Origin: Minutocellus sp. GHC0000111
Lineage: Eukaryota
Direction: 5' to 3'
DNA length: 64,000 nucleotides
NCBI GenBank assembly: GCA_977018835.1
Contig: OZ361259.1
Coordinates: 3,968,001 to 4,032,000, forward strand
Of this stretch, positions 10,197 to 60,111 are shown piece after piece. Position numbers and translations under genes: made by a program. The notes beneath the pieces were generated by a model, which made no database searches, was not told the origin of the DNA, and worked only from the letters and a program-made list of their open reading frames with translations. Position 1 is the first letter of the stretch. Every line of letters starts with the position of its first letter.

Positions 10197-11671
10197 GGCC
10201 CTGGTGCCCTCTGTTTGATCGTTTTGTTGGCGTTTCGGGGTTCGGGGGCACCAAGGGGCATTTTAGCAACTACGTCCTCTCAGCAAAAATTCTAGTTGTA
10301 AACATATACGTTCTTAAGATTTGGGTGTAGCTTAATTTTGTAGCACACACTGGCAAAATGTATTGGATGTTCACCCTGGCAGGCTTTCTCCCTTGTTTCC
10401 CCCCTTTTTAATTTCTGAATGACGTCATTATCTGACATGTAAAAATGCTGGATTCCCCTCATTTTTAAATCCTCTGTTTGGTTTTCGTGCCTTTGTGGAT
10501 CTCCATTCTTTCATGCTTAGTATGACTTCTAAGTCACTAGTGCTCATTCGAAAGGTCTTCGCCCATCTGATCAGATCCTCTTTTTGCTTTTTCCCCAGCT
10601 TGGTTTGATTGTATTTTTGTCTAGTTAGTCTTTCAATCCATCCATTTTTTTCTCTCAGTTGCACTTTCTTGTGCAGTGTTGCTCCGTCTCGTTGGTATTT
10701 GAGGCCTAGGACTCTGTGTGTGTTCATGTCTTGCCCCGAGAAATATATTGCTGCGTCTAGATTTCCTGTCCCTGATGTTGTTGCTCTACAGCGCGCCGAA
10801 TGACATCGATAATGAATGACGCAGAGGCAGCGATCGACGAGAGGCTCAACAGAGACGAGGAACGAGGAAAAGATCGGGGATCTTCGAGAGAGCGCGACAT
10901 GGGATCGACGTCGAAAGAAGAGAAAAACGTGGATCGAGATCGGCATAGGTTCGCAATGAATGATTGAAATTCGACCGAGAGAATGATTTCGACGAGTGGT
11001 GATGAAAAGCCAAGTGAGAGAGAGGTCGCCATCGCACCATTCACTTCTCCCCTCTTCTCGTGTGCACCCATCCCGTTTCTGTTTGATGTCAACTGTTCTC
11101 AAGTTTCTAGTAGTTGCATTGTAGCTGTAATCGGAATTATCTGCAGGTGCGCCTTCGTCCTGTCTCGGTGCGCCAAGGCAGTCTGCTTTCTGGAGCCATC
11201 TCCCCCCCCCAGCACTCTTTTGACAACCTTTTTCTCTTCCATGGCCTTTCGCACTCTCCCTTGTCTCACTCTCGTCTCCAAGAATCACCGCGAATTTCCA
11301 TGGATGGGTTCATTGGCTCTCCTCTCGGTAAGGAGTTCTTCCGTCGCCTCTGGTTGGCGTCTCATTGTCGCCGGTGCGCGAGGGAGATGACTCCAGAAAG
11401 TAGACTGCCTTGGCGCACCGAGACAGGACGAAGGCGCACCTGCAGATAATTCCGATTACAGCTACAATGCAACTACTAGAAACTTGAGAACAGTTGACAT
11501 CAAACAGAAACGGGATGGGTGCACACGAGAAGAGGGGAGAAGTGAATGGTGCGATGACTGACACTACACGTAGACACGCCGCATGAAAAAAGGAAGGAAT
11601 AGTTGTGTTGTAGCACGAAGTGCCAATTTACAAATAATAGAAAAAGACGCACCCACTAGGGCACCCGGGCC
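10197..11671. mobile_element. Possible degenerate non-autonomous DNA transposon containing the hairpin below
   Basis: 13/14 inverted match GGCCCTGGTGCCCT (10197..10210) / AGGGCACCCGGGCC (11658..11671). No clean target-site duplication and no recognisable transposase. Confidence 0.3.
11030..11556. repeat. Long inverted repeat: 175-bp arms (11030..11204 / 11382..11556), 177-bp spacer, 2 mismatches
   Basis: Direct reverse-complement alignment; also seen as matching peptides in ORFs 10983..11390(+) and 11310..11564(-). Confidence 0.95.
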
Positions 11672-17314: not shown

Positions 17315-17344
17315 TACCTACCTAGGTACCTAGGTACCTAGGTA
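17315..17344. repeat. (TA-CC / TA-GG)n array abutting the transposon end
   Basis: TACCTACCTAGGTACCTAGGTACCTAGGTA: 8 TA dinucleotides separated only by CC or GG. Confidence 0.9.
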
Positions 17345-20300
17345 CCTTTCGAGTTCAGAGGATTTGAAAGTGACGTGATGATGACGTATTAGAAACACGA
17401 CCACACCAGACCAAAAATCCAAGCTCACTTTTTCTAACTCCGAGGAATAAATGACGGCCAAGATGGAAGTCGGGGCAAGAACCAAGTTATGGTCACCAAC
17501 TTCTACATATAGTCGAGAGATATTGTGCACCAGAACCAATAAATGTACATTATGTGATGATTTTTTTCGACATTTGCATTCCTCACCCCGGGAAAAAACA
17601 CATTTTTGGAAGCACCAAAAATCAAAATGTAATGAATAGAAATGGACATGCTATGATAAGTTATAGCAAATCAATGACTCCATCGTCTTCATCATTTTCA
17701 TCTATGTCGTCCTCAATGTCATCATCTTCGCCGGGAGCATCAATTGGCCAGAGTGGTTCACCATCCTCTTCAGCTTCTTCCTCGGCAATTTTTGCGAGAG
17801 ACCAGCCTTTCCCCGTCTGGTCTCCACAAGATTGTTACCGCCACGACTTCTCTTGATGTTGTTATATATCACTGGAAGTTTTCCAAATACATTGAGAAAG
17901 GCCTCTTTTGATGCGACATTGGCCCATACTTTCATCACAGTCTTGTCAAGAGCATTCGCATCATTCTTCTGACCGCGATGCTCCTTTTCGACGGCCGACT
18001 GCAAAGACATCCAGATGCCGAGATCAAGAACATTTGTCTCGGGCGACCGAGGAACCTGCTGGATTATCTCAATCTTATATTTGTTTTTGAGGTCCTCGGT
18101 GTGCTTCTCAACTGCTTCATTGGACCCATGACCGCCGGCATTGTCCATCATAAGACACACAACATCACAGACTCCTGAACATTTTGTGGATCCCACTTCA
18201 CCCAATGATGTGCGTCTCGAATCGCCTTCCCGACCTCATTCATGGTCTCCAACATCCATTTGGAGTCGCAGCTACAGTCCTTGGTAACCTTATCGCCCCG
18301 TTGATACCGCACCCCGAGCTCAAGGTGGTCGTCGATCTCAACCTTCACCTTCTCTCCATTGCTATCAGGAGTGTGTCGCTTGAGACTCGAGATCTTTTGA
18401 TTGTAGCCAACAGCGGCATGCTTGCGACTTTTTGCCTGACCGTCGGATTTGTAGTCCTCGTGTTGAAGTTCCAATCGTTCTGTAACAAACTCAGAAAGGC
18501 CGTAGATTTCGGCAATGTGGTCGCAAAGATGGCCGGCGGTCATGTCAGCATTCTCGTCGTAAATGTCGCGCCAATCTTTGTCATTTTTAGCGCATCGTTG
18601 ACCTTAGCATCTGGAGAGAAATTCTGATTACGCGTAAGCTTTTCCACCTTCTGCTCCCTGGCGACTCTCTTGATCATGATGCGCCCATTGAAATCAACGT
18701 CTTTGGTTTCATCCTTCATTGGTCGGCCAACAACTCCAAGACACATAACTTTGACAGGGTGTCTTCTGGATCGAATTTTCGGGCTTGCCTCGGAAGCATG
18801 GATAGACGCGAGGTTCGGACTACTTAGTTCTTCGTCAGAAAGTGGCAACATCTTGATCTTTCGTCGCCGAGTAGCAGTGTAAAACCACTTTTCATCAAGA
18901 TGCGCTACAGGAATGTTGGGATCGGTCGCAATGTCCTCCCACTTTTCGATCCAATCAAGTCGCTTCCTACAATGTTCGGGGGTGAGCCTCGGCTTCTCGA
19001 TCGACGACTTCTCCTTGCCGCCTTGCTTTTTCCACCAGCGAAAAAGCTGAAGACGATGGAGACTAATTGTCAGCCTGTCTTCATCTGGAGTAGCTGATTT
19101 TGCGCTCATGCAGTCAGCTAGCTCCTTAAAGGTTGCCATCGCACCCTTCATCCGAGTAGCATGCCGACACAGCTCGCGGAGACATCCTGGCTCCTTCTCC
19201 TCGATCATGTCCGTGCATGCCTTCCTTCCACGAACCTCCTTTCTGCCGATGGGATTGCTGATGCCATCAGTGAGGCTTTTGTAGAGCTGGTCTCTCCACT
19301 TGTAAAGCTGAGAACCACCGGTTGACTTGGCATAGCCGTGATCGTGCGCAACTTGCCGACACGCGGCAGTTGCAATTTGTTGCCGGTCTTCATGCGTGCG
19401 AGTTGGGTCGCCGCATCCCCACCAATCCGCGAGAGCCACGGCGCTGAACCGCATTCTTTCATTCGCCTGCTTTTCTTTTCTGATTGGTGTTGGTTCGGTG
19501 ACGGTTGCATTGGGACGAGGAGGACGGAGCATGTCATCGTTGGCCATCCGAACAACAAAGTCGAGGCCGAGAGCGACCTTTACCTGTTCATCAATGTCAC
19601 TGGAGGTGGCACAGACAACGGAAGTGTCGGCTCCTCCTAAACCTTCATCATTGGGGGAGGCTGCAGCTGCTTCAGTGGCGGAAGCATCACCAGTTCCCTT
19701 CAGCATGCTGAGGAGACTTGCTGGCATCCAACCCAGTTTCTTGGCCTCGTCGACTAGTGATTTCACTCTTGCTTCGCAATGCGCTGACTGCACCTCCTTT
19801 CTGTGAGCTGACAACCTCTCATCTAGCTTAGTAGCTAAGACAGTCGAGCGCCCAGAGAACAGAACTTCATCGGGATTTCTTCTCTCGTGCACCTTCTGTC
19901 CCTCCGGTCCAGAGAATTTCGGGTGGTTGTCCTCCTTCTTTTTACGCAACCTGTGAGCACAAACATAAAGCGCCCTGCGTCTTGTCTTCCCTCTCGGCCG
20001 ACACGTCGACAAGTGCAACTTCAAACTACAATGCTCCTTGAGATGTTGCTGCACATCCTTCCATTTTTCCTCGTTGTACTGTAGCTCATACTTTCCTCCA
20101 CCGACGGACTTGGAACGCAACAAGTCGGCCTCGATGAAAGCAGGGAGGACGTCTTCCCATTTCTGCCGAGAACCAACACAAATGTCATCTTTGCCGCAGG
20201 AATCGGGGGTTGCTCTCCACCACAGATCCTTACCAGCCCTTCGAATGACATCTGCTGCAAGGAGAAAGGCCATGGGGATAGGAGGAGGGGCCGTCCTCTT

Positions 20301-20801
20301 CTTCGCCGACGACGGTGACGGTTTGGCGGGCGAATTTGTGACCGTGGCCGCTTCTTCGACGTGCTTGCGCTCGGCGATGGTGTTTTCGGCTCAGCTGCCG
20401 CCTTTGCCGCCTTCCTGGATGCCTTGGTGTTGCCTCTCTTGCTCCCTGAGAACGAAGTTCTGCTGCGTTTGTATTTTTTGGGCGTGGTCTGGTTGGTCGT
20501 CGTCATCGTCACAAAATTTGCGGGTTGCGGTGAGGGTGTGCGGGGGACCAAAAAACACATGTGTTCCTGCCAGAATCTACTGGACCTGCGAATTCAGTGG
20601 ATAACACTACTGGTCGGTGGCAACCTACTGAATGAGCAGGTCCAGTAGACATCCACGAGTTGAGGAGAGTGTTTTTGCGTTCCTCCCGAAGAGAACATCG
20701 ACTAACAAGACACGTGTGGTGGGAAATGAGAAATGGGTGCAAGAATGACCTTTTTTAGGGGTTGTTGGTATACCCTCTACAAATCCTCTGAAACCGAAAG
20801 G
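17345..20801 (-). mobile_element. Tc1/mariner DD39D-type DNA transposon, copy 1 (3457 bp)
   Basis: 22-bp TIRs CCTTTCGAGTTCAGAGGATTTG (17345..17366) / CAAATCCTCTGAAACCGAAAGG (20780..20801), 2 mismatches; flanked by TA on the left and TG on the right; internal transposase. Confidence 0.92.
17661..20506 (-). pseudogene. DD39D transposase, frameshifted and hypermutated
   Basis: LDEKWFY, MDNAGGHG and SPETNVLDLG motifs; 39 residues between the second and third Asp; three frameshifts shared with copy 2 plus a private 2-nt insertion near 18167. Confidence 0.88.
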
Positions 20802-21357
20802 TGCTTCCCAACGCTGACCATTTGTTTGTCAAAATCATGAGACGACTTGATGGCCAGTTCTGTGGCGACCCCATGCTGCGGCAGGACGTCCTGCATCAGC
20901 ACACCCTCTCGCTGAAGCTGACGCCGCTTTCGAATTCCGACCCGAAGCCAGTGGTCTCGGGGTGTTTGGTGATGCACTCCCACAGGAGCGTGGTGCCAGA
21001 TCGATGTGCACCGCCAATGGTCAAAATGGTCTTGTGCTCGCGAATGAGTGACTTCCACTCCGACGGCGTATTGTGCAAATCAAAATAGGCATGTCCGAGA
21101 ATTGCAGTTGGACCAAACATCCAACACCGCGATGTTTGCGGCAATGTCACTGTGAATCCGAGAGTGGTTGCCAGGGGAATCAGAGGCATTTCCTTGCGTT
21201 TCATTGGGGAAGAAGATGAGGATGATGAGGCAGAGGCATTCGCATTGTCTTTTTACTTTTTCTTGCGTGCTGCTGCTGCTGCTGCTGCTCCTGTTGCCGG
21301 CGACGATGTGTCAGGCCCCACCTTGTCTTTCTTCCTTTGTTTCTTGGTCGGGGACAT
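20802..21357 (-). pseudogene. Truncated sulfotransferase-family pseudogene
   Basis: TIGGAHRSGTTLL (5'-PSB loop) followed by HPETTGF...SEGVLMQDV; in-frame TAA near 21253, frameshift near 20905; ends abruptly at the TIR of copy 1. Confidence 0.8.
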
Positions 21358-22097
21358 TGCACCATTAGTGGTCGGAATGAGTAGAGAGTACGCACTCAAC
21401 AACGCATTAGAGTTAGCACCGCGTGTTGCGGCAGAGCGTTGCAGACGGCCGTTGAAAAGTGGAGGTTGACCACTCCTTGGCAAAACTTTTTCTCATTTTT
21501 TGCCTCATCATCTCTGTGAGGGAGCAGGCCTACTCCGCGAAGTCTGAGGCTCGACGTGGATCGACGACCATTGCGTCATCAAGGCGCAATCGGACTGCGC
21601 TCACAATGCAAAACTGCGTCACGAAAGCCCTTGAAGTCGCAATCGACTTGGATGACGAAGAGAAAGTGGCTTTGTGTGGCATATTTGTCCCTTTATGCAC
21701 CAGCACACTGTGGTCTTTTGTGGCCTTTTCATCCCTCCCGTTCCACAAGAGCTTTCATACTTTTTTATGTTTATCCGTACTCCCGTCTCTGTACGAGGAC
21801 TTCTGTGCTTGCACACTAATTCTCACACTGCACGTCAAAACTTACATATACTAGACTAGTAGGAATTCCTATGGGGGAAACGCCGGAGGCGAAAAGATAT
21901 CCCGCCGCAAGTTATGTTATCCCGCGATGCGTGCATCATAGGAATGTTCCTACATGTAACACGTGCTGATGCTCTCACTGCATCTCACTTTTTCTGGAAG
22001 AGCAAAATAGCGAGACCAACCAAAGCCGCTTACATACAGCTAACTCCGAGCCATCCACCCACAACTACGAGCTCCAAACCTACCGCATTATTCAAAA

Positions 22098-22559
22098 ATG
22101 ATCAACATCTCTTCAGTACAAACCCCCACCACACCCATCGATCGCCGCCGCCGTTGCCACCGTCGTGTCACATTCGTGAAAACGGCGTATGTTTACAATA
22201 TCCCCAGCTTGAAGGAATTCACCGATAAGGAGATCTCTCAAACATGGCTCACACCGCAAGACGAGGAAAGGATCAAGAACGACATGCTTCGTACTGTCGT
22301 ATGCATGCGCAAAGGTGACATCAACATTGGCATGTGCACTCGCGGTTTAGAGCACTTGAAGAGCTCCGAAAGAACGCAGAGACGCGTCTCGGACAAACAA
22401 CGTGTGGTCCATGCCGTCCTTTCCGAGCAGTCCAATCAATGTCACCGAGAGATCTATAGCTCAAAAAATATAGCCGCTGTTTCGTCGGCGCTGAGCCAGA
22501 GAGCTAGAGATCGTGCCGTCCTTTTGGCGGCGCATGATGCCATCGATATCAATGCATAA
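22098..22559 (+). CDS. Small hypothetical protein of a type common in diatoms
   Basis: RRVTF...V..IP...E....W...+ CTRGLE...R...V.AVL.EQ...IA.VS..LS..A...A...A..DA pattern. Confidence 0.7.
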   Translation: MINISSVQTPTTPIDRRRRCHRRVTFVKTAYVYNIPSLKEFTDKEISQTWLTPQDEERIKNDMLRTVVCMRKGDINIGMCTRGLEHLKSSERTQRRVSDKQRVVHAVLSEQSNQCHREIYSSKNIAAVSSALSQRARDRAVLLAAHDAIDINA

Positions 22560-22732
22560 TTAAATATTCAGAGATGATGTGAATTAGATTTCTAGCTCCG
22601 TAATATGTATGTATAATTTTGGATTCGTACGCGTAGCCATTCTGTTTATGTATCTAGGACTCTATTAGATCTACCTGAAAGATCCACCTCCTGTTATATC
22701 AAGTGATGGTTATATTGTAACTCAAAACTTTA

Positions 22733-24091
22733 TCATTTTAGCGGTAGGCACGCTGGTCGCAACACTGCTCCTCCCATACCAATGGTGCTTCGAAAGCCAT
22801 AGCCAGATTTGGTAGGTTTGTCTTTCTCCTCATCAGCATCACTCGACTGGTTCTCATCTTGATGCATTTTCAGCTCATCTTCGTATACCTTGAGGACACA
22901 ATCTCTTGCGAGAGCAATAGCCTCATCCATGGACAGGGTACAAAGAAATTTTTTCGCATCATTATTTGACAACGAAGCCATCGTTTCCTCGAGGACGTCA
23001 TTGTCAATCTCTTCTTCGTCGTAATCGCCGCCTCCTCTACTCCCCTCCATATCTGTTGAGCTCGTCATCCGTCTTGCGATTTCTTTCATTAAGTATGCTT
23101 CGGCAACTGCTGCCCCTCTTCCCACAGTTGCCGCATCGCACGACCAGAACTGACCACTGGGATCGACACGCCAGATCTTGGGTGCACCACAACCTTCAGC
23201 CGTGTCTACAATGATCGCCGATGCTGCCAGGGCACGATTTCTAGTTGACTGCGTCGAAACTTGGACCATGTCGGCAATTTTTCGTGCCAAGATTGATCCA
23301 TCGACTCCAAACATTCCACATTTTGAGCGGCGCCCTCCTTTGGGTGTAGATTGGTAGGTGAATCCAGTACCACCAAAATTGGAATTGTGCATGTCCGATG
23401 CCATTGATCTTATCCGATCAAGCAATACAGCTGCATCGGTTGGGGTTCCTCCTGCTGCTACCAACATAGTCGGCGAAAGAATTGACATTGTCGGTGGGAT
23501 GGACCTGTCTGATGAGTTAACAAGGAGGTCCGAGCGGAAGCTTGGCTCATTTTGTTCCTCGTTGTTGGTCTCCTCGCCTTCTTCACTGTCGTCATCTTCC
23601 TTTCGGTCATTGTCCGTACTAGTAGTTGCCAGTAGGGCCGATGCTTGAATCGCAAGAGGACTTCGCGGTGACGTCCCAACAACCACGATGAATTCCTTGT
23701 TGGAATCATAACCCTCTTCCTTGCCGACGCCACCACATCGTAGCGCCACTACAAGGCCGGCAGTTGCATCATCTTTGTTGCATGCCGCCATCCCTACGCT
23801 ATCGACCATGTGAAGCCAACCCGTTGGTGCGAATACGGTCGGTGGATAGGTTTCGTACTGTGCCCGCTCGAACGGGTCAATGTGAATGCTCGGGGCTGAT
23901 GCTGCAACTGAAAGAGACATGTGGAGGAAGCATGCTGCATTTGCAGCACACACGAAAAAGGAGCGTCGTACGGCGGCGGCGGTCCGAAGTGCCGCTTTGA
24001 CAGCTGCTGGTTTGGGCCGATCCATTGAGCTCATTCCTACAACACCAAGAACGATAGCATCAGCGAATGAAGGGCTAATCTTCCTATGCAA
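22733..24091 (-). CDS. Divergent 20S proteasome alpha-subunit-like Ntn-fold protein with N-terminal extension
   Basis: YETYPPTVFAPTGWLHMVD resembles the alpha N-terminal YDRxxTxFSPxGRLxQVE; KIADMVQVSTQ...RAL; IWRVDPSGQFWSCDAATVGRGA. Confidence 0.75.
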   Translation of the reverse strand: MHRKISPSFADAIVLGVVGMSSMDRPKPAAVKAALRTAAAVRRSFFVCAANAACFLHMSLSVAASAPSIHIDPFERAQYETYPPTVFAPTGWLHMVDSVGMAACNKDDATAGLVVALRCGGVGKEEGYDSNKEFIVVVGTSPRSPLAIQASALLATTSTDNDRKEDDDSEEGEETNNEEQNEPSFRSDLLVNSSDRSIPPTMSILSPTMLVAAGGTPTDAAVLLDRIRSMASDMHNSNFGGTGFTYQSTPKGGRRSKCGMFGVDGSILARKIADMVQVSTQSTRNRALAASAIIVDTAEGCGAPKIWRVDPSGQFWSCDAATVGRGAAVAEAYLMKEIARRMTSSTDMEGSRGGGDYDEEEIDNDVLEETMASLSNNDAKKFLCTLSMDEAIALARDCVLKVYEDELKMHQDENQSSDADEEKDKPTKSGYGFRSTIGMGGAVLRPACLPLK

Positions 24092-24391
24092 TGAGTGCCA
24101 ATGAAGTGTTGTTTGTCAGATTGGTGGCGGTACAAACTCTCCTCCGATTCCTCCGGGTTTTTATTTTGGCGGGCCCGCCAAACCGCCAAATATGCGTCAG
24201 GATCTGGTAGGAGCGAAAAAGAACTTATTGAATTGCCAGGGGAATGAGCGTGTTGCTCGTCATTTGATTAATATCGCCGGCATGACTCACATGGGCGATG
24301 GTATCCGCCATCGGTACAGGCCAGATTCCCAAAAAAAAAATGGGGTGAACGAGCAGCGAATAGCGGTGGGTACACAAACAAATCGTCTGAT

Positions 24392-25234
24392 GTGTGGTTT
24401 TATGTTGCGATCATCGGGTTCTTTGTGTTCCTGCGCTTTCTCCCGTGGATATTGAGGAAACTTGGATGTATCCCACCAAGACCAGAGCGCGTCGTTCTTC
24501 GCCGTAACCCCGGTGAGGAGACCACAGAAGAGCTCTCCGGGGAAGAGCGTAAAGAGCTGGTCACCAAAAGCCTCTCAACTACGAAAGTCACAAAGCACTC
24601 TCCTGATATTTGTTTGGGCGAGTGTGTGGAGAGACAACCCATAGGTACGGGGAAACAAGATCCATCCCGGATATCGCTGGCTTCAGTCAGTACCGTGACA
24701 GCAGATGAAGAAGAGATTGAACAAGAAGAAGAAGAAGGAATCGAAAGGGCCAGAGAGGACGTTGGTGTTGGTGATGAAGCCTCTTCAAATGACGACCAAA
24801 CCACTCTCAGTCCGTGCCATATATGCCTTGATCACTTTCGAGTCGGTGAGGAGATATCCTGGTCAAATGTATCAAAATGTGAACACTGCTTTCACTCCCA
24901 GTGCATCAATGAGTGGCTGCTCAAGCATCAAGCCTGTCTGCTCTGCAGAGCGAATATGCTGGATCTCACAAGTTTACAACGACGGGATTCCGAGGAGGGA
25001 CGAGAAGATGATGATAGCAGTAACGTACAAGATGAAGTCGCTGACGTCCAGGTAGAAATTACGCCTGGCCTCGATACATCGTGCAATCCTTTGCCTGCCA
25101 ACGAGGAGAACTTGGTGGCGGCTGAGGAAGGTGAAGCCAAGAGCATTAACGTCGATGCGACAGGAAATAGGCAAGAAGAAGCTTTAGGAGAGAGGATGTG
25201 TTTTTGTGTTGAGCACGGAGTAGAGGATTTGTAG
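24392..25234 (+). CDS. Transmembrane RING-H2 E3 ligase-like protein; true start uncertain, stop supplied by the transposon end
   Basis: N-terminal TM helix; CHIC...CEHCFHSQCINEWL...CLLC; last codons (EDL*) lie within the element TIR. Listed start codon is GTG. Confidence 0.8.
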   Translation: MWFYVAIIGFFVFLRFLPWILRKLGCIPPRPERVVLRRNPGEETTEELSGEERKELVTKSLSTTKVTKHSPDICLGECVERQPIGTGKQDPSRISLASVSTVTADEEEIEQEEEEGIERAREDVGVGDEASSNDDQTTLSPCHICLDHFRVGEEISWSNVSKCEHCFHSQCINEWLLKHQACLLCRANMLDLTSLQRRDSEEGREDDDSSNVQDEVADVQVEITPGLDTSCNPLPANEENLVAAEEGEAKSINVDATGNRQEEALGERMCFCVEHGVEDL

Positions 25235-28200
25235 AGGGTATACCAACAACCCCTAAAAAAGGTCATTCTTGCACCCATTTCTCATTTCCCACCACACGTG
25301 TCTTGTTAGTCGATGTTCTCTTCGGGAGGAACGCAAAAACACTCTCCTCAACTCGTGGATGTCTACTGGACCTGCTCATTCAGTAGGTTGCCACCGACCA
25401 GTAGTGTTATCCACTGAATTCGCAGGTCCAGTAGATTCTGGCAGGAACACATGTGTTTTTTGGTCCCCCGCACACCCTCACCGCAACCCGCAAATTTTGT
25501 GACGATGACGACGACCAACCAGACCACGCCCAAAAAATACAAACGCAGCAGAACTTCGTTCTCAGGGAGCAAGAGAGGCAACACCAAGGCATCCAGGAAG
25601 GCGGCAAAGGCGGCAGCTGAGCCGAAAACACCATCGCCGAGCGCAAGCACGTCGAAGAAGCGGCCACGGTCACAAATTCGCCCGCCAAACCGTCACCGTC
25701 GTCGGCGAAGAAGAGGACGGCCCCTCCTCCTATCCCCATGGCCTTTCTCCTTGCAGCAGATGTCATTCGAAGGGCTGGTAAGGATCTGTGGTGGAGAGCA
25801 ACCCCCGATTCCTGCGGCAAAGATGACATTTGTGTTGGTTCTCGGCAGAAATGGGAAGACGTCCTCCCTGCTTTCATCGAGGCCGACTTGTTGCGTTCCA
25901 AGTCCGTCGGTGGAGGAAAGTATGAGCTACAGTACAACGAGGAAAAATGGAAGGATGTGCAGCAACATCTCAAGGAGCATTGTAGTTTGAAGTTGCACTT
26001 GTCGACGTGTCGGCCGAGAGGGAAGACAAGACGCAGGGCGCTTTATGTTTGTGCTCACAGGTTGCGTAAAAAGAAGGAGGACAACCACCCGAAATTCTCT
26101 GGACCGGAGGGACAGAAGGTGCACGAGAAAAGAAATCCCGATGAAGTTCTGTTCTCTGGGCGCTCGACTGTCTTAGCTACTAAGCTAGGTGAGAGGTTGT
26201 CAGCTCACAGAAAGGAGGTGCAGTCAGCGCATTGCGAAGCAAGAGTGAAATCACTAGTCGACGAGGCCAAGAAACTGGGTTGGATGCCAGCAAGTCTCCT
26301 CAGCATGCTGAAGGGAACTGGTGATGCTTCCGCCACTGAAGCAGCTGCAGCCTCCCCCAATGATGAAGGTTTAGGAGGAGCCGACACTTCCGTTGTCTGT
26401 GCCACCTCCAGTGACATTGATGAACAGGTAAAGGTCGCTCTCGGCCTCGACTTTGTTGTTCGGATGGCCAACGATGACATGCTCCGTCCTCCTCGTCCCA
26501 ATGCAACCGTCACCGAACCAACACCAATCAGAAAAGAAAAGCAGGCGAATGAAAGAATGCGGTTCAGCGCCGTGGCTCTCGCGGATTGGTGGGGATGCGG
26601 CGACCCAACTCGCACGCATGAAGACCGGCAACAAATTGCAACTGCCGCGTGTCGGCAAGTTGCGCACGATCACGGCTATGCCAAGTCAACCGGTGGTTCT
26701 CAGCTTTACAAGTGGAGAGACCAGCTCTACAAAAGCCTCACTGATGGCATCAGCAATCCCATCGGCAGAAAGGAGGTTCGTGGAAGGAAGGCATGCACGG
26801 ACATGATCGAGGAGAAGGAGCCAGGATGTCTCCGCGAGCTGTGTCGGCATGCTACTCGGATGAAGGGTGCGATGGCAACCTTTAAGGAGCTAGCTGACTG
26901 CATGAGCGCAAAATCAGCTACTCCAGATGAAGACAGGCTGACAATTAGTCTCCATCGTCTTCAGCTTTTTCGCTGGTGGAAAAAGCAAGGCGGCAAGGAG
27001 AAGTCGTCGATCGAGAAGCCGAGGCTCACCCCCGAACATTGTAGGAAGCGACTTGATTGGATCGAAAAGTGGGAGGACATTGCGACCGATCCCAACATTC
27101 CTGTAGCGCATCTTGATGAAAAGTGGTTTTACACTGCTACTCGGCGACGAAAGATCAAGATGTTGCCACTTTCTGACGAAGAACTAAGCAGTCCGAACCT
27201 CGCGTCTATCCATGCTTCCGAGGCAAGCCCGAAAATTCGATCCAGAAGATGCCCTGTCAAAGTTATGTGTCTTGGAGTTGTTGGCCGACCAATGAAGGAT
27301 GAAACCAAAGACGTTGATTTCAATGGGCGCATCATGATCAAGAGAGTCGCCAGGGAGCAGAAGGTGGAAAAGCTTACGCGTAATCAGAATTTCTCTCCAG
27401 ATGCTAAGGTCAACGATGCGCTAAAAATGACAAAGATTGGCGCGACATTTACGACGAGAATGCTGACATGACCGCCGGCCATCTTTGCGACCACATTGCC
27501 GAAATCTACGGCCTTTCTGAGTTTGTTACAGAGCGATTGGAACTTCAATGCGAGGACTGTAAATCCGACGGTCAGGCAAAAAGTCGCAAGCATGCCGCTG
27601 TTGGCTGCAATCAAAAGATCTCGAGTCTCAAGCGACACACTCCTGATAGCAATGGAGAGAAGGTGAAGGTTGAGATCGACGACCTTGAGCTCGGGGTGCG
27701 GTATCAACGGGGCGATAAGGTTACCAAGGACTGTAGCTGCGACTCCAAATGGATGTTGGAGACTGTGAATGAGGTCGGGAAGGCGATTCGAGACGCACAT
27801 CATTGGGTGAAGTGGGATCCACAAAATATTCAGGAGTCTGATGTTACATATCTTATGATGGACAATGCCGGCGGTCATGGGTCCAATGAAGCAGTTGAGA
27901 AGCACACCGAGGACCTCAAAAACAAATATAAGATTGAGATAATCCAGCAGGTTCCTCGGTCGCCCGAGACAAATGTTCTTGATCTCGGCATCTGGATGTC
28001 TTTGCAGTCGGCCGTCGAAAAGGAGCATCGCGGTCAGAAGAATGATGCGAATGCTCTTGACAAGACTGTGATGAAAGTATGGGCCAATGTCGCATCAAAA
28101 GAGGCCTTTCTCAATGTATTTGGAAAACTTCCAGTGATATATAACAACATCAAGAGAAGTCGTGGCGGTAACAATCTTGTGGAGACCAGACGGGGAAAGG

Positions 28201-28657
28201 CTGGTCTCTCGCAAAAATTGCCGAGGAAGAAGCTGAAGAGGATGGTGAACCACTCTGGCCAATTGATGCTCCCGGCGAAGATGATGACATTGAGGACGAC
28301 ATAGATGAAAATGATGAAGACGATGGAGTCATTGATTTGCTATAACTTATCATAGCATGTCCATTTCTATTCATTACATTTTGATTTTTGGTGCTTCCAA
28401 AAATGTGTTTTTTCCCGGGGTGAGGAATGCAAATGTCGAAAAAAATCATCACATAATGTACATTTATTGGTTCTGGTGCACAATATCTCTCGACTATATG
28501 TAGAAGTTGGTGACCATAACTTGGTTCTTGCCCCGACTTCCATCTTGGCCGTCATTTATTCCTCGGAGTTAGAAAAAGTGAGCTTGGATTTTTGGTCTGG
28601 TGTGGTCGTGTTTCTAATACGTCATCATCACGTCACTTTCAAATCCTCTGAACTAGG
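25222..28657 (+). mobile_element. Tc1/mariner DD39D-type DNA transposon, copy 2 (inverted relative to copy 1)
   Basis: Reverse complement of copy 1 at >99% identity; 5' TIR lacks its outer 12 bp; 3' TIR has a 4-bp deletion (CGAA) and is followed by TA at 28658..28659. Confidence 0.92.
25505..28345 (+). pseudogene. DD39D transposase (~945 aa if three A-run frameshifts are repaired)
   Basis: ORFs 25451.., 25738..27471, 27468..28304 and an acidic tail ending VIDLL* join after adding one A near 25673, 27425 and 28215; catalytic motifs LDEKWF, DNAGGH, NVLDLG. Confidence 0.88.
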
Positions 28658-28659
28658 TA

Positions 28660-30478
28660 CGTCCAGGTCAATTTTATTCTTGTACCAGGAGGGGATCAAA
28701 AAAACTCATTTCCCGGGGGAAAACCCCCTGTTGACAGCATCGCGCGTTTGTTAGCAAAAAACACAGACAAGATGATCAACCGTCAACAATGGAACACATG
28801 AATAAACCAAGCTACGCTGGGCGATACACTCCATGAGACGCAGCCATATACAGCACATGCCTGCATTAGGATGTTATGAGCGCGTCTTGACCGCCGAAGC
28901 CCGTCGCTGACGCCGCAGAGCATAAATTTATTTATTGCTGCTCACTTACACGTCGTTCCGCCCCTCGTTACCGCGCGGAATTGGAGCTTGCTTGCACTCA
29001 AAAGAGCAGGAAGTAGACCACCGCTTGCTGCAAGACGATGGTATATCATCTTCATAATATATTGTGGGATGGATTGATAGCGATATTTGAGGTGGAGAAT
29101 GCTGGAAACAACTTCGTTTTCCAACTTTTCGGTCAAATTCTTGCTGAAAATCGATGATTCGGAGGTGGCTGCAGCCAGAACATGGGACTTAAAGCCTCAT
29201 ATACGATCGAAACTGGCCGATGCTTGGCTTTGGCGGCCAATGGATACACATGAGATGGGTTGGGCAGCCGCTGATTGGGGTCTCCGGTGAGAGGTATTGT
29301 TCTATTTACACACATGGACAAGTAAAAGGAAATCTTTTGCACTCTCCTCAACTACTCCTTTGCTCCTCACTTTACCTGCAGAGAACACAACCACCCCATC
29401 TGGCGGCCATCCAGTCCAGCCACAGGCTAGTATATTTACACAGCGGATATCGTCATCATTTCTGTGACCATCGGGGCCTCAATCGTCGAAAAACATTGAG
29501 CATTTGTGATTTTGAAATGGTTCAAGATTTGGGGTGGAATCATTTAACTTTAGAGATGCTTATGATATGGGGCACTGAGCGCTGAATGGCCGCAGTAGCG
29601 GGTATTCTCGCTCATATATGATATAACAGCACTCAAATATGGTGGGTGGGGACGATGGGCCGTTCCTCTTGCCCATTCGGCAGATGTCTGAATCACTGGG
29701 AATGGAGCGAAATCGAACCTGAAATAAGGAGGAGAATGGATCATATAAAATAAAGAGATAAAGCCCCACTGAGGCGCTATGGCACTTAACTTCACCCTCT
29801 ATATATATTAGTTGGTCTGCATGGCTATCATCTGAGGGAAGGAAGCAGCACAATGGGTGCTCATGCTGCTATCCTCCCCCAACCACCACCAGCGCCAGCG
29901 CAATTATACCACAATCAGGGCTCATGGGGTCACGTTCTTTGTCCGGTGTGGAGCTCCACGACGAAGCCGAAAATGTCGATTTTGGGGCATCTTCGTGGTG
30001 GAAATTCGAATGAATAAAAGCCCCCGTTGCTCGGAGTCTCGGTGCATGCAGCCTCAACACATACTGAATGGACAATACAAATGCAGACTCCGAGCAAATG
30101 GGTGGTAGACAATGCATTCATGGGCGCTTCCTGGTGGGGTGGTGCCGTCGAATCGGCACAAACTCGTGACATGTGTTGTGTTTGAGACATTATTTCTCAA
30201 GAAATACATGCGAGTAACTTGCACTCTCGGTGCGCACGTGCCGAAGAGGTATCAAATGGTCATTTCGAATGCAGAGTGTAAGTTACTCGTTGGTGGTGGT
30301 GGAGATATCTGCGGCGGCGGTGACCATGGTTGAGCCCATGCTTTCGCCGTGATAAAAAAATGAGCGGGTTTTCGGTCGAGAGGGCGAAAACAAGTGGGGG
30401 CATAAGTATTTTGGTCCCGATTTCCAACGAGTTCCTCGCACGTAGAACCTACGTGAGACGGGACCACTGTCCTGGACG
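28660..30478. mobile_element. Probable degenerate TA-flanked element with short TIRs, directly abutting copy 2
   Basis: TA|CGTCCAGGTCAAT at 28658 versus ACTGTCCTGGACG|TA ending 30480 (8-bp perfect, 11/13 overall). The interior has only stop-riddled minus-strand coding remnants (~28942..29500). Confidence 0.5.
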
Positions 30479-54775: not shown

Positions 54776-56818
54776 TTGTTTGATGAAAAAGCGACGGACA
54801 GACCGATCGATCTCGCTCTCTGCCGCTCGCGCAAACCGCCACAGCTGAGATGCACATGCCCAGCTCCCACTTGCCACTGCCCCCTTTTGGCAGCACTGAG
54901 CAAGGAGCAAGATGCGCCTCATCATGACGGCAGCAAGCTTATTCATTTCGTTTGCGCAGTTCGTGCGAATGGTCGCAATCCAATCTCTTTGGCTCGTCGA
55001 AGCTTGACCGCAATCCGAGCTGGCGCTACCGACGATTATCTGTCCTCGTTATCTCGTCCATTCATGACGAATGCCCATGATCAAAAGCTCACAAAGGCTG
55101 CATATGCTGCAGTAGACAGTGCAAATGTTCCAAATATTGACACAACCAGTGAAGATTACAATTCTCAATCCGTCGCTATTGCCAGAGCCTTCCTCCAAAA
55201 GTCGTGCCCGTCATTCCTATTATCGGACGTATGTAAAGACGAGGACCGGTTGATCAAAATTGGGAGGAGCCTAGCCGATCTAGTCAGCAGATCAAACGAG
55301 GACGAGGGGCCGGCAACGACTTCCGACGAGTTAGAGGATGGTCTTCATCTTCTTGTCGAAGAGTGCTCCCTTTTGGCATCGGATGGAATCCAAGTGCCAA
55401 AGAAGAGATTTGGCAAAACCGAATTAATGATGCCAATTGTATCGCTCGGGTGCATGCGTTTCCAGCAGGCATGGGGCACCAGCATCGAATCAATGGACGA
55501 TGTTACACCCGAGTGTCAGGAGAATCTACTCAGCATTCTACGCCGATCTTTTGCTCTCGGGATAAATCATATCGAGACAGCACGAGGATATGGCTCGTCG
55601 GAGATGCAGATCGGCGAAGCGCTGAAAACTTTGTTTGAGAATGGCGAAGTCAAGCGTGAGGATCTCATCATTCAGACCAAGGTGCCTCTCCGACCGACAG
55701 CGGCAGAATTCCGAGAAGTGATCGAGAGGAGCTTTCGGGAATTGCAGGTTGATTATGTGGATCTTTTAGGTTTACACGGACTCAACCTCGACGAGCAATA
55801 TGACCTGCTGTACAACAACGGCGACAATGGGAATTTGATTGACGTTGTCAGAGAGTACATGTCAAAAGGAAAGGTTCGGCATCTCGGCTTTTCAACTCAT
55901 GCAAGGCCTGATCTCATTCGACGATTTATCGAAACTGGCGATTTTGAATATTGCAACCTACACTATCATTGGTGCGGTTCCTATACAGCCTCTGGCGACG
56001 GCCAATATGGTGGAAATCTTGAAGTCATACGCCTATTGAACAAGATGGATCTCGGCGTCTTTATCATATCCGCATTTGATAAGGGCGGGATGCTTTATGC
56101 GCCATCCAAGAAGCTTCGGTCGCTCACTTTGCCGGACTTGGAGCCAATAGCGTTTGGCTCTCATTTCTTGTGGCAGCATCAGCTATTCGACGCTGATGGA
56201 GCAGATATTCACACAATAAGTTGTGGTGCGGCAAGGCCTAGTGATCTTGACCAACCAGCTGTCGGAGCCCATATGCACGCTCTCAAACCCAGCGAAATGG
56301 AAGAGCGAGTTGATGCCATCAGGAAGCGAATAAGGGCTGCTGAAGAAGCTGCTCTGGGCGCAGACTGGGTCCGTTCATGGTTTCAGGGCCTTCCAAACTT
56401 TCTTGGATCGGAAAGTGCTACTCACCACGGCAACATCGTATGGTTGTATAACTCGATTAATTCGTTTGGGATTTTAGAGTTTGCCAAGGCACGTTATGCA
56501 AGCATGGAAAATAACAGCCAAAAGTGGGATGAATCCTTGTCTAACGAGGAAAACATAAAAAACCTTGGCCCAGCTTGGGGATGGACTCCTGGCACCGCTA
56601 TCAAGCCCGGGAAGGATTACAGCGCCGACTTGATTGCCGTGCCAGAGGCTAACAAAGAGCGGGTAGCAGAGGCTATTGAATTCATTCACAAGTGGTGCTC
56701 TAAAGATCGGCCCGAAGGAGGAGCCGATGATGACGACGGTGCTTCCATCACATCTCCAAAAGAGTGGGAAACAGCCTATGACATGCGACCGTGGACCGCT
56801 TTCCCTGAACGGAGGTAG
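54776..56818 (+). CDS. Aldo/keto reductase family oxidoreductase; 5' end uncertain
   Basis: RFGKTELMMPIVSLGCMRF, GINHIETARGYGSSE, IIQTK, VDYVDLLGLHG, GKVRHLGFSTH. Confidence 0.88.
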   Translation: MFDEKATDRPIDLALCRSRKPPQLRCTCPAPTCHCPLLAALSKEQDAPHHDGSKLIHFVCAVRANGRNPISLARRSLTAIRAGATDDYLSSLSRPFMTNAHDQKLTKAAYAAVDSANVPNIDTTSEDYNSQSVAIARAFLQKSCPSFLLSDVCKDEDRLIKIGRSLADLVSRSNEDEGPATTSDELEDGLHLLVEECSLLASDGIQVPKKRFGKTELMMPIVSLGCMRFQQAWGTSIESMDDVTPECQENLLSILRRSFALGINHIETARGYGSSEMQIGEALKTLFENGEVKREDLIIQTKVPLRPTAAEFREVIERSFRELQVDYVDLLGLHGLNLDEQYDLLYNNGDNGNLIDVVREYMSKGKVRHLGFSTHARPDLIRRFIETGDFEYCNLHYHWCGSYTASGDGQYGGNLEVIRLLNKMDLGVFIISAFDKGGMLYAPSKKLRSLTLPDLEPIAFGSHFLWQHQLFDADGADIHTISCGAARPSDLDQPAVGAHMHALKPSEMEERVDAIRKRIRAAEEAALGADWVRSWFQGLPNFLGSESATHHGNIVWLYNSINSFGILEFAKARYASMENNSQKWDESLSNEENIKNLGPAWGWTPGTAIKPGKDYSADLIAVPEANKERVAEAIEFIHKWCSKDRPEGGADDDDGASITSPKEWETAYDMRPWTAFPERR

Positions 56819-57796: not shown

Positions 57797-60111
57797 CGAA
57801 GTCCGTTTCGCGAGAAATCGAGCGCAGGGTCGGCACCAAAACAGCGTCTTTTTGGGCCCGCAACCGCCTGAATCTTAGATCTACCGGCATTGAATACATG
57901 TACAATGCAAAGTACATGTACCTAGGTATTGCAGCAGCTAGTATCCAGATCTACAATCCAATCTAGTATTATTAAACACAATATAACTTAAAAGCACCGC
58001 AGGACTAATTATCCATGGTTGGATCAGCAGGAGGAGGAGCGATAATTTTCCCATCTATCCGAACCATGCCATTTTCAGTCGGCCTGAAATCCTTTCGCAC
58101 CCCAACATGAATGCCTTCACCGTTTCCAAGAAAATCATTGTTGCCTTTTGCAACGATTACCTTCTTTGCAATTCTATGAGCCTGGATGTATGCCGATGCG
58201 ATCTTCCAGTTTTCCAGCCCCATCCAAACTTCCTCCGCTGCATCCCAAGTCTGATCCTCTGTCAAAACCTTCAGCCCCTCCCGATCGCGGCACACCATTG
58301 TATGCTGCTTTGACATGCAAGGGAAAACAGACAGATCAAGAACATTCATATGGGGCATTTGCGGGGCCTGAGGTTCCCAACGCCATCCCTTGTCCCGACA
58401 GTATCCTTCCACATATTCCACAAATTCAGTCTCGGCATGGGGCCCAGCATTGTCGCCCTGGAAAATAGGGACATAGCCTTCAAACTTTCCGCCAGGTCCG
58501 ACCAAAGCCTCAATATCCGGAAATATCTTGTTCTCAAACAAAGCTTTCAGTGGGAACTTGGGATTATCAAGGGTGCCATGGCTGCATCCAGTCACCGCGC
58601 AATCCACAAGGTATAGATCGTCTTTCTTCCGAACCACCGGGCCGCAATATTTGATTCTACCATCTGCCTGCCGCACCGCCTCCCTTACCATCTGCCTCGC
58701 AATTTTATGCGCCTGAGCCCAAAAAAGTCCAAGCTTGAACGCAATGCCGCCATTCTCAATGCTGTCAATAAAAGCCAAGGCAGTGACAGCCACCAACATG
58801 CACTTGTTGTTGATGTGATTTCGGTGATATGCCGAGAAGGACCGAGGATCAATACCCAATTCTGCAACTTGCTTGGCATACGATCGAAGAACCAAGCCCC
58901 AAAACCACTTCTCATCGAACATAACAAGGAGAAACTTGCCACCGCCGAGCCCCCAATTGTTTCGGAATTTCCGCGCAAATGCCAAATGTTTCTCCATCTG
59001 ATGTGTAGTAAGGAGAGGGATGATCCTTTCGGCATAGTACCGGAACCCTTCCCGCGACATTATCCACCGCCGTATTGCCGAGTAGGAACACCAAAAGTTG
59101 ACATCCACCTCCAGCTCCCGCCAAGATTCCCGAGGATTTCGTATCAGAGCATCAACAATAACATCTCGAATGTATGGCTGCATAGCCAGATGAGATCTCC
59201 TCTTCATCTCCCACATCGCCTTCTCAGATGCAGGTAGAGCACCATACGCCTTCATCCATCCCGAAAATCGTGCACCATGCTCTGCGCTGGACAGCACCGA
59301 ATAGTCCACCTTTGCCTGCTCCCTGCACTTGGCAATTGCAAAGAGACATGGTGCAGTATACCGCCGGGTCGCCGTTACAAGATCGTCGATGACAGAACGG
59401 AAGGCGGCCGAATCAGATGAATCATCGGCACTCGTTGGGAAGCAGTATACCGGTCCAAGTATGCCGATCGCGTCATCGAAATGCTCAGCTTCGACTTCCG
59501 CCCGAGACACAAATGGATTGAACACATGCTCACCGCTGTCTTGGCCATCATCATTGACCAGGAGAAAACTCTCAAGATTGACGGGCCCGAGGATTTTGAG
59601 AAGCACATGCTCCTCAATGTCGTCAGTCGACTCGTCTGCCGGGCGATAAGGGCCGAGAACATGCCCCTCGACATGGATGATGTCGTGGCAATAACTGAAT
59701 CGGTGTACGACAAGGCCGCGGAGATGTTCCACTCCTCAGTTACCTTCATCTACAAGTTCAACGGCGTGAAGCGGGAGCTAAAGAAGCTCAAACTCATCCC
59801 GGATTGGCTGTGGTGCGAGATCCGGGACGAATGCATCGTACTGCCGATCCGAGGCGAGTATCATGCCATCGTTCAAGATGAAGACGAGATGGAGGCCGAA
59901 CCGTCGCGTCGCACGAACGCGTCCATTTGATTAGAGCCGCTGAAATCTAAAGTCTTATCCGAATTATTGTTTCACATGAAGATAAATGAAAATTAGAGTA
60001 AAAATAGCCATTTTCTTAAATATTTCAGCATGACTATTCTTCGAGGCGCTTTTCAATCCCCTCGAAAGCAGTCAAAAACCGGGCGCTCGATTTCTCGCGA
60101 ATCTGACCTCG
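57797..60111 (-). mobile_element. Tc1/mariner DD38D-type DNA transposon (2315 bp)
   Basis: 29-bp TIRs CGAAGTCCGTTTCGCGAGAAATCGAGCGC (57797..57825) / 60083..60111, 3 mismatches; TA on both sides; the empty site would be the palindrome ACGTACGT. Confidence 0.92.
58005..59732 (-). CDS. DD38D transposase with HMG-box-like and HTH-like N-terminal segments; start uncertain
   Basis: MFDEKWF, QGDNAGPH, PHMNVLDLSVF; 38 residues between the second and third Asp; listed start is GTG. Confidence 0.85.
   Translation of the reverse strand: MEHLRGLVVHRFSYCHDIIHVEGHVLGPYRPADESTDDIEEHVLLKILGPVNLESFLLVNDDGQDSGEHVFNPFVSRAEVEAEHFDDAIGILGPVYCFPTSADDSSDSAAFRSVIDDLVTATRRYTAPCLFAIAKCREQAKVDYSVLSSAEHGARFSGWMKAYGALPASEKAMWEMKRRSHLAMQPYIRDVIVDALIRNPRESWRELEVDVNFWCSYSAIRRWIMSREGFRYYAERIIPLLTTHQMEKHLAFARKFRNNWGLGGGKFLLVMFDEKWFWGLVLRSYAKQVAELGIDPRSFSAYHRNHINNKCMLVAVTALAFIDSIENGGIAFKLGLFWAQAHKIARQMVREAVRQADGRIKYCGPVVRKKDDLYLVDCAVTGCSHGTLDNPKFPLKALFENKIFPDIEALVGPGGKFEGYVPIFQGDNAGPHAETEFVEYVEGYCRDKGWRWEPQAPQMPHMNVLDLSVFPCMSKQHTMVCRDREGLKVLTEDQTWDAAEEVWMGLENWKIASAYIQAHRIAKKVIVAKGNNDFLGNGEGIHVGVRKDFRPTENGMVRIDGKIIAPPPADPTMDN

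Follow-up and report, generated by a model that had tools for sequence, protein, structure and literature searches.

The 64,000-nucleotide stretch analyzed here, referred to as the window (contig OZ361259.1 of Minutocellus sp. GHC0000111), is gene-dense eukaryotic DNA that carries two inverted copies of a DD39D Tc1/mariner-type transposon. In these copies and their relatives the dinucleotide TpA has been turned into CpA or TpG at many positions. We regard this loss as real, and as polarized from TA to CA/TG, with near certainty. The copies and their parts are as follows (R, purine; Y, pyrimidine).

17343..17344, + strand: target duplication on the intact side of copy 1, reading TA
17345..20801, - strand: copy 1, a frameshifted DD39D Tc1/mariner-type transposon with 22-bp imperfect terminal inverted repeats and the D..39..D spacing of its intact relatives
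20802..20803, + strand: the other target duplication of copy 1, reading TG (TA>TG in a G-TA-C context, TG being the presumed derived state)
25216..28657, + strand: copy 2, whose left inverted repeat is degenerate (start approximate) and whose right one lacks 4 bp and is followed by TA at 28658-9
25738..28345, + strand: coding sequence of the copy 2 transposase, split over three frames (25738-27423, 27426-28205, 28208-28345)
26480..27300, + strand: most heavily mutated core of copy 2, with R-TA-Y at 0/15 of the remaining TA steps
27189..27850, + strand: patch, apparently not homogenized, with 16/18 of the copy-to-copy substitutions (copy 1 equivalent, 18156-18822)

The element and its two copies

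The element resembles DD39D mariner-like members of the IS630-Tc1-mariner group in its catalytic spacing, its short inverted repeats and its TA target duplication, the comparison being one of motif spacing and ends rather than of a tree. It differs in its long transposase, which measures 852-961 aa in intact relatives and has no Pfam match; a gap of 39 residues between the last two catalytic Asp is present in P0028 and six relatives. The family is high-copy, with 275 members in one cluster among the 26 relatives. We compiled a family set of 41 proteins from the search that gave these 26 relatives, reading at most 15 members per cluster. P0045, which seems to repeat P0002, was left out together with two fragments of 60 aa, and any stretch below 65% local identity was masked as frameshifted. 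A family copy (P0029) and a 98% match of the host aldo/keto reductase of the window (P0197) lie on contigs of equal length, which suggests that the proteins on megabase contigs stem from the species of the window or one very near to it. P0028 is the sole one of the 41 to span at least 800 of the 867 positions, and it is also the least mutated (4/12 hot Tyr).

Copies 1 and 2 are 99.3% identical over 3438 columns. Set against the family, the two have in common the loss of 1 bp near 27422 and insertions of 2 bp near 25673 and at 28206, and both are frameshifted as a result. The 577-codon frame, described by the initial annotation as free of nonsense changes, is not intact: it is a truncated part of the transposase, ended by the 1-bp loss. 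In the coding region of copy 2, 34 of the 90 reconstructed ancestral TpA sites are gone. The TG at 20802-3, reported earlier as a mutated target duplication, is indeed found beside the 22-bp inverted repeat of copy 1. At the left end of copy 2, a loose-end consensus at 25222 confirms the inverted repeat and not the adjoining flank bases.

The small-indel load is high in 25222-28654 and in the family proteins, often as short tandem gains, which may be biological or assembly error. Next to copy 1, on its intact side, 17318-17344 consists of tandem TACCTAGG repeats. Their TA steps carry no mutation, and they look like footprints (TA and the terminal CC/AGG) piled up by successive excisions from one insertion hot spot.

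The initial annotation had counted 18 substitutions between the copies, all transitions, of which 15 are compatible with TpA changed to CA or TG, and this count holds. It had called the other three A/G changes as well. For 26129 this is correct (A>G in ApA in copy 1, Lys in the family); 26189 is a G>A change in copy 1 (Gly in the family) and hence not A>G, and 27533 is a synonymous, unpolarized difference. The copies also differ by one 3-bp and one 2-bp indel.

Of the 18 substitutions, 16 crowd into 662 of 3433 bp (p=4e-10), and at four of those in the patch one copy has CA where the other has TG. Derived TpA states are common to both copies at 25/25 sites upstream of 27189 versus 1/12 within 27189-27850 (p=1e-8); for two family members drawn at random, the mean agreement at mutated Tyr sites is 44% (452 pairs). 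This difference in sharing implies that conversion or a recent duplication homogenized most of the copy length, and the patch resembles two independently mutated copies. The copies are thus mosaic, and contrary to what had been implied their 18 differences need not post-date the duplication; the mosaic itself could be an assembly artefact. Between the inverted copies (20802-25215) lie three open reading frames (ORFs), encoding a proteasome-subunit-like protein, a RING finger protein and a protein without assignment. Recombination between the copies would invert this interval and could have caused the mosaic.

Direction, spectrum and context of the changes

We selected 23 positions at which all three outgroups (87, 75 and 62% identity) have Tyr and scored them in the 41 family proteins. 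Of 456 observations, 277 are altered (His 146, Cys 128, Arg 2 and Phe 1). The reverse change is nil, with ancestral Cys to Tyr at 0/124 and ancestral His to Tyr at 0/138. Two of the 23 sites are His in every copy (24 His observations) and may have been inherited in that state from the source element. In copy 2, 13 of these 23 Tyr are gone. The His and Cys of VAHLDEKWF, CLRELCRHA, KACTD and VMCLGV, suspected from the start to replace Tyr, correspond to Tyr in the close outgroups, and most of them to Tyr down to about 43% identity.

The sites that alternate between CA and TG lead to the same ancestor. At most informative sites the outgroup residues (Tyr, Ile, Met and Lys) fit TA and not CG, which would require Arg, Thr, Val and Glu. 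Contigs assembled from independent sequencing runs also carry TA as well as the derived states: where the window reads C or G, most of the family reads T or A, consistently between runs of four studies. Among the 22 variant places listed for the element, 20 are of TpA type or show the sister state. In this comparison read-run depth is not a copy number, the RNA runs X4 and X6 are contigs and no measure of transcription, and one short, distant metagenome locus (L001) was left out. The outgroups, the 41 sister copies and the reads thus bear out TA as the ancestral state. The depletion of TpA, which had also been offered in support of the direction, is weak evidence alone: observed/expected TpA is 0.37 in the element coding sequence (CDS), inside the range of the host ORFs (0.27-0.66; mean 0.52 +/- 0.09 in 23 ORFs), and separates the element poorly from host genes.

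The copy spectra were derived from amino-acid changes read back to codons, that is, from proteins and not DNA. Of the 646 single-step changes, 540 are A>G in TpA, a rate of 540/2407 per copy-site (0.224). Elsewhere A>G is rare, with 13/4399 in ApA (0.0030), 6/3499 in CpA (0.0017) and 6/5368 in GpA (0.0011); ApA is marginally above CpA and GpA together (p=0.055). The three polarized non-TpA A:T>G:C changes of the window copies (25302, 26129 and 26676) all lie in AA/TT steps. C>T in CpA is at background (7/3433, 0.0020), and transversions number 46/62996 (0.0007), or 8/5035 at TpA bases. A mild and separate CpG decay is present, at 18/3460 (0.0052) versus 17/10795 for other C>T (p=5e-4), and CpG stays abundant as first noted (observed/expected 0.90). 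This dominance of A>G in TpA, together with the low C>T in CpA and CpG, excludes both repeat-induced point mutation (RIP) and CpG decay as principal cause, in agreement with the initial annotation.

Both strands are hit equally, and both TpG and CpA outcomes occur (His 176 versus Cys 169 at 25 polymorphic sites; p=0.75). Because the strands are equal in a DNA transposon, editing of an RNA intermediate is disfavored. The copies were mutated independently: nine sites give 22 patterns among 23 copies, mean r2 is 0.082 against 0.055 expected, and all four His/Cys combinations occur in 52 of 66 site pairs. No strand-coordinated runs were detected across the family (192 of 363 adjacent pairs alike; permutation mean 190.8; p=0.47). 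Coordination had been suggested by the two window copies; as the family does not bear it out, the idea that they descend from the two complementary strands of a single edited duplex is given up.

The immediate context is strongly selective. Mean site frequency is 0.315 in RT[A]Y (57 sites), 0.165 in YT[A]Y (28), 0.045 in RT[A]R (25) and 0 in YT[A]R (11) (p=5e-10), ten ancestral TA sites that rest on one copy, fixed states or a frame junction having been dropped. T[A]C (279/946) and T[A]T (234/764) are hot, and T[A]G is the coldest (8/348). Along the element the RTAY mean runs 0.31, 0.42, 0.28 and 0.09 from 5' to 3', with a peak in mid-element and a drop toward the 3' end.

Host DNA and other elements

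Two further genes of the window bear on whether the changes are confined to repeats.

55064..56818, + strand: host aldo/keto reductase, used as control; 10/10 outgroup-shared Tyr kept
58005..59735, - strand: second Tc1/mariner-type transposase, a lightly mutated copy of a 146-member cluster, with a Pfam HTH_Tnp_Tc3_2 match below cut-off

The reductase, whose named homologs are from the diatoms Eucampia, Chaetoceros and Cyclotella, keeps all ten of its Tyr while copy 2 has lost 13/23 (p=0.002), a comparison that is confounded by purifying selection. As far as tested, the changes appear confined to repeats, as proposed earlier. The share of R-TA-Y among TA steps is 354/963 in host ORFs, 159/549 in intergenic DNA, 10/58 in the element CDS and 0/15 in its core. 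Relative to intergenic DNA, the depletion is borderline for the whole CDS (p=0.065) and clear in the core (p=0.008).

The named homologs of the second transposase, in Cylindrotheca and Nitzschia, point to a diatom source, as do those of the reductase. Its family was judged from cluster representatives, and its window copy is scarcely mutated (2 forward changes, 1 reverse). Five proteins of other mariner lineages on megabase contigs, apparently from the assembly of the window, compared with their nearest short-contig relative, show 26 Tyr>His/Cys changes and no reverse, with 17 in P0184 alone; given this range from P0184 to the second transposase, the load varies widely between copies and families.

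Some other places in the window and beyond it show similar changes. A 175-bp inverted repeat (11030-11204 and 11382-11556) has two differences, one of which is TA versus TG (11185); it overlaps an ORF without Pfam match (10428-11309) beside a PAH and WRKY19 zinc-finger gene. The region 28750-29500, probably another repeat, has a depth above the single-copy flank and many variants, including TpA-type ones at 28924, 29056, 29190, 29296, 29441 and 29454. In the relatives P0004, P0024, P0062, P0068, P0069, P0075 and P0079, on short contigs of other assemblies, His or Cys now and then takes the place of a conserved Tyr, a hint that related diatoms undergo this process too.

Candidate mechanisms and known systems

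We regard host DNA adenine deaminase chemistry as the likeliest source of the TpA loss, at about even odds. A putative enzyme of this kind would be targeted to silenced elements, where it would convert the A of TpA, best in R-T-A-Y, to inosine, which replication would read as G. Host defense, guidance by silenced chromatin and repeated, scattered episodes would all belong to this scheme. Of the two chemistries suggested by the initial annotation, adenine deamination is thus still a candidate, and error-prone repair of the polymerase-eta type fares poorly, as shown below.

Several points weigh against deamination by such an enzyme. First, TpA is palindromic, and sequence does not separate A>G from T>C on the opposite strand. 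Second, a processive single-strand deaminase might leave strand runs, and these are absent. Third, known enzymes have other preferences: TadA-derived editors take CA as well as TA, whereas CpA here is at background, and the ADAR hot spot is given as UAG in the part of PMC10661471 available to us, whereas T[A]G is the coldest context here. Fourth, the ancestral sites behind the TpA rate were partly picked from the same variation, from which the 23-Tyr outgroup test is free. The evidence for specificity has its own weaknesses, namely the selection acting on the reductase, the borderline R-TA-Y depletion of the whole CDS, the scarcely mutated window copy of a second high-copy family, and a TpA-type variant among the four single-copy flank variants (24469).

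The main rival to the deaminase is an oxidized-thymine mark, which we hold to be possible and distinctly less probable. A TET/JBP-type enzyme would mark the T of TpA in silenced transposons (5-hydroxymethyluracil, 5hmU, then 5-formyluracil), and the modified T would pair with G and give T>C, as a by-product of a palindromic epigenetic mark comparable to the decay of 5-methylcytosine in CpG. Its premise is that 5-formyluracil miscodes. It predicts an identical sequence outcome, and a written mark suits both the strict dinucleotide specificity (at least 75-fold over other contexts) and the lack of strand runs. In dinoflagellates 5hmU is tied to transposon silencing and replaces T preferentially in TA and TC, according to the accessible text of PMC11572971. 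However, TC (equivalent to GpA) is not raised here (6/5368), and the text of that paper available to us makes no mention of diatoms.

Two other explanations appear improbable to a similar degree. One is that repair, or recombination among repeats, triggers resynthesis by an error-prone enzyme of polymerase-eta type (WA motif), from which the small indels might also stem. The AA/TT context of the polarized non-TpA changes, the slightly raised ApA and the frequent indels with short tandem gains are in its favor. Polymerase eta yields many AA changes and transversions, and because both are near absent here (TpA is 75-fold over ApA, and transversions at TpA are 8/5035), and with no strand-coordinated tracts, it is disfavored. 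The other is a different adenine mark or lesion at TpA, such as N6-methyladenine (6mA) followed by deamination, or a repair bias of heterochromatin without a dedicated mutator. It is compatible with A>G on both strands and with the centre-high gradient, but adenines that follow a base other than T stay at background and T[A]C is as hot as T[A]T; moreover, known eukaryotic 6mA sits at ApT.

Ordinary CpG decay, RIP-like CA>TA or assembly error with the direction misread is largely refuted and very unlikely: a low CpG decay exists, the mosaic could be artefactual and diatoms have DNMT5 and a RID-related DNMT4 (accessible text of PMC9998398), but the outgroup residues fit TA, C>T in CpA is 7/3433 and independent runs carry both states.

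The initial annotation knew of no described pathway; the same TpA>TpG/CpA signature is given by Mettrop et al. 2026 (bioRxiv 10.64898/2026.01.13.699255), cited here from the accessible part of that preprint. In two viral regions of Bigelowiella natans, 231 new mutations were found, all but one TpA>TpG/CpA, at a de novo rate raised about 1000-fold and active in some lines only. The authors propose an ADAT-type deaminase, with an unproven ADAT2-like candidate, and suggest an extension to transposons, the TpA-poor genes of B. natans being enriched for DDE endonuclease and reverse-transcriptase domains. The hypermutation of integrated nucleocytoplasmic large DNA virus (NCLDV) and virophage sequences there has in common with our case the change itself, the near absence of anything other than transitions, the action on both strands and the foreign DNA as target. 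It differs in that it concerns a rhizarian and a single-copy viral region, with the de novo rate measured and transposons only inferred, whereas here a multi-copy DNA transposon of a diatom was polarized copy by copy and showed an R-TA-Y preference and a positional gradient. In the available main text of the preprint the words "diatom", "stramenopile", "context", "flanking" and "trinucleotide" were not found. The whole word TpA was likewise not found in preprint 10.64898/2026.08.24.746577, and our literature searches, which covered titles and abstract openings with most subscription papers outside their reach, returned no diatom report of TpA hypermutation. The process has been described once before, and it is now found in a new lineage, a diatom, and a new target class, a DNA transposon family.

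Two other systems invite comparison. RIP of ascomycetes also makes dinucleotide-specific transitions on both strands and disables repeats, but it acts by C>T, mostly CpA>TpA, and creates stops; here C>T in CpA is at background, TpA is destroyed and no His or Cys becomes Tyr. The dinoflagellate 5hmU of TET/JBP enzymes is likewise linked to transposons, is thymine-based and has a reported preference for TA (and TC); in the accessible text of PMC11572971 it is described as a silencing mark and not a mutator, and no TC effect is seen here.

In a wider reading, to which we give about an even chance, diatoms would possess a mutation-based defense that mirrors RIP. A sequence-specific adenine deaminase or a TpA base mark would edit R-TA-Y in transposons and remove both conserved Tyr and TA targets. 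This defense would be shared with Rhizaria and be ancient across stramenopiles, alveolates and Rhizaria (SAR), and its enzyme would be a natural, strictly TpA-specific A-to-G DNA editor.

A natural chromosomal A-to-G editor or a mutagenic TpA mark would be a new chemistry of genome defense, and because diatoms have genetic tools the enzyme becomes findable. The R-TA-Y fingerprint provides a test for candidate enzymes and for a system common to both algae. For diatom transposons themselves, dating and annotation are biased, because copies look old and lose Tyr without gaining stops.

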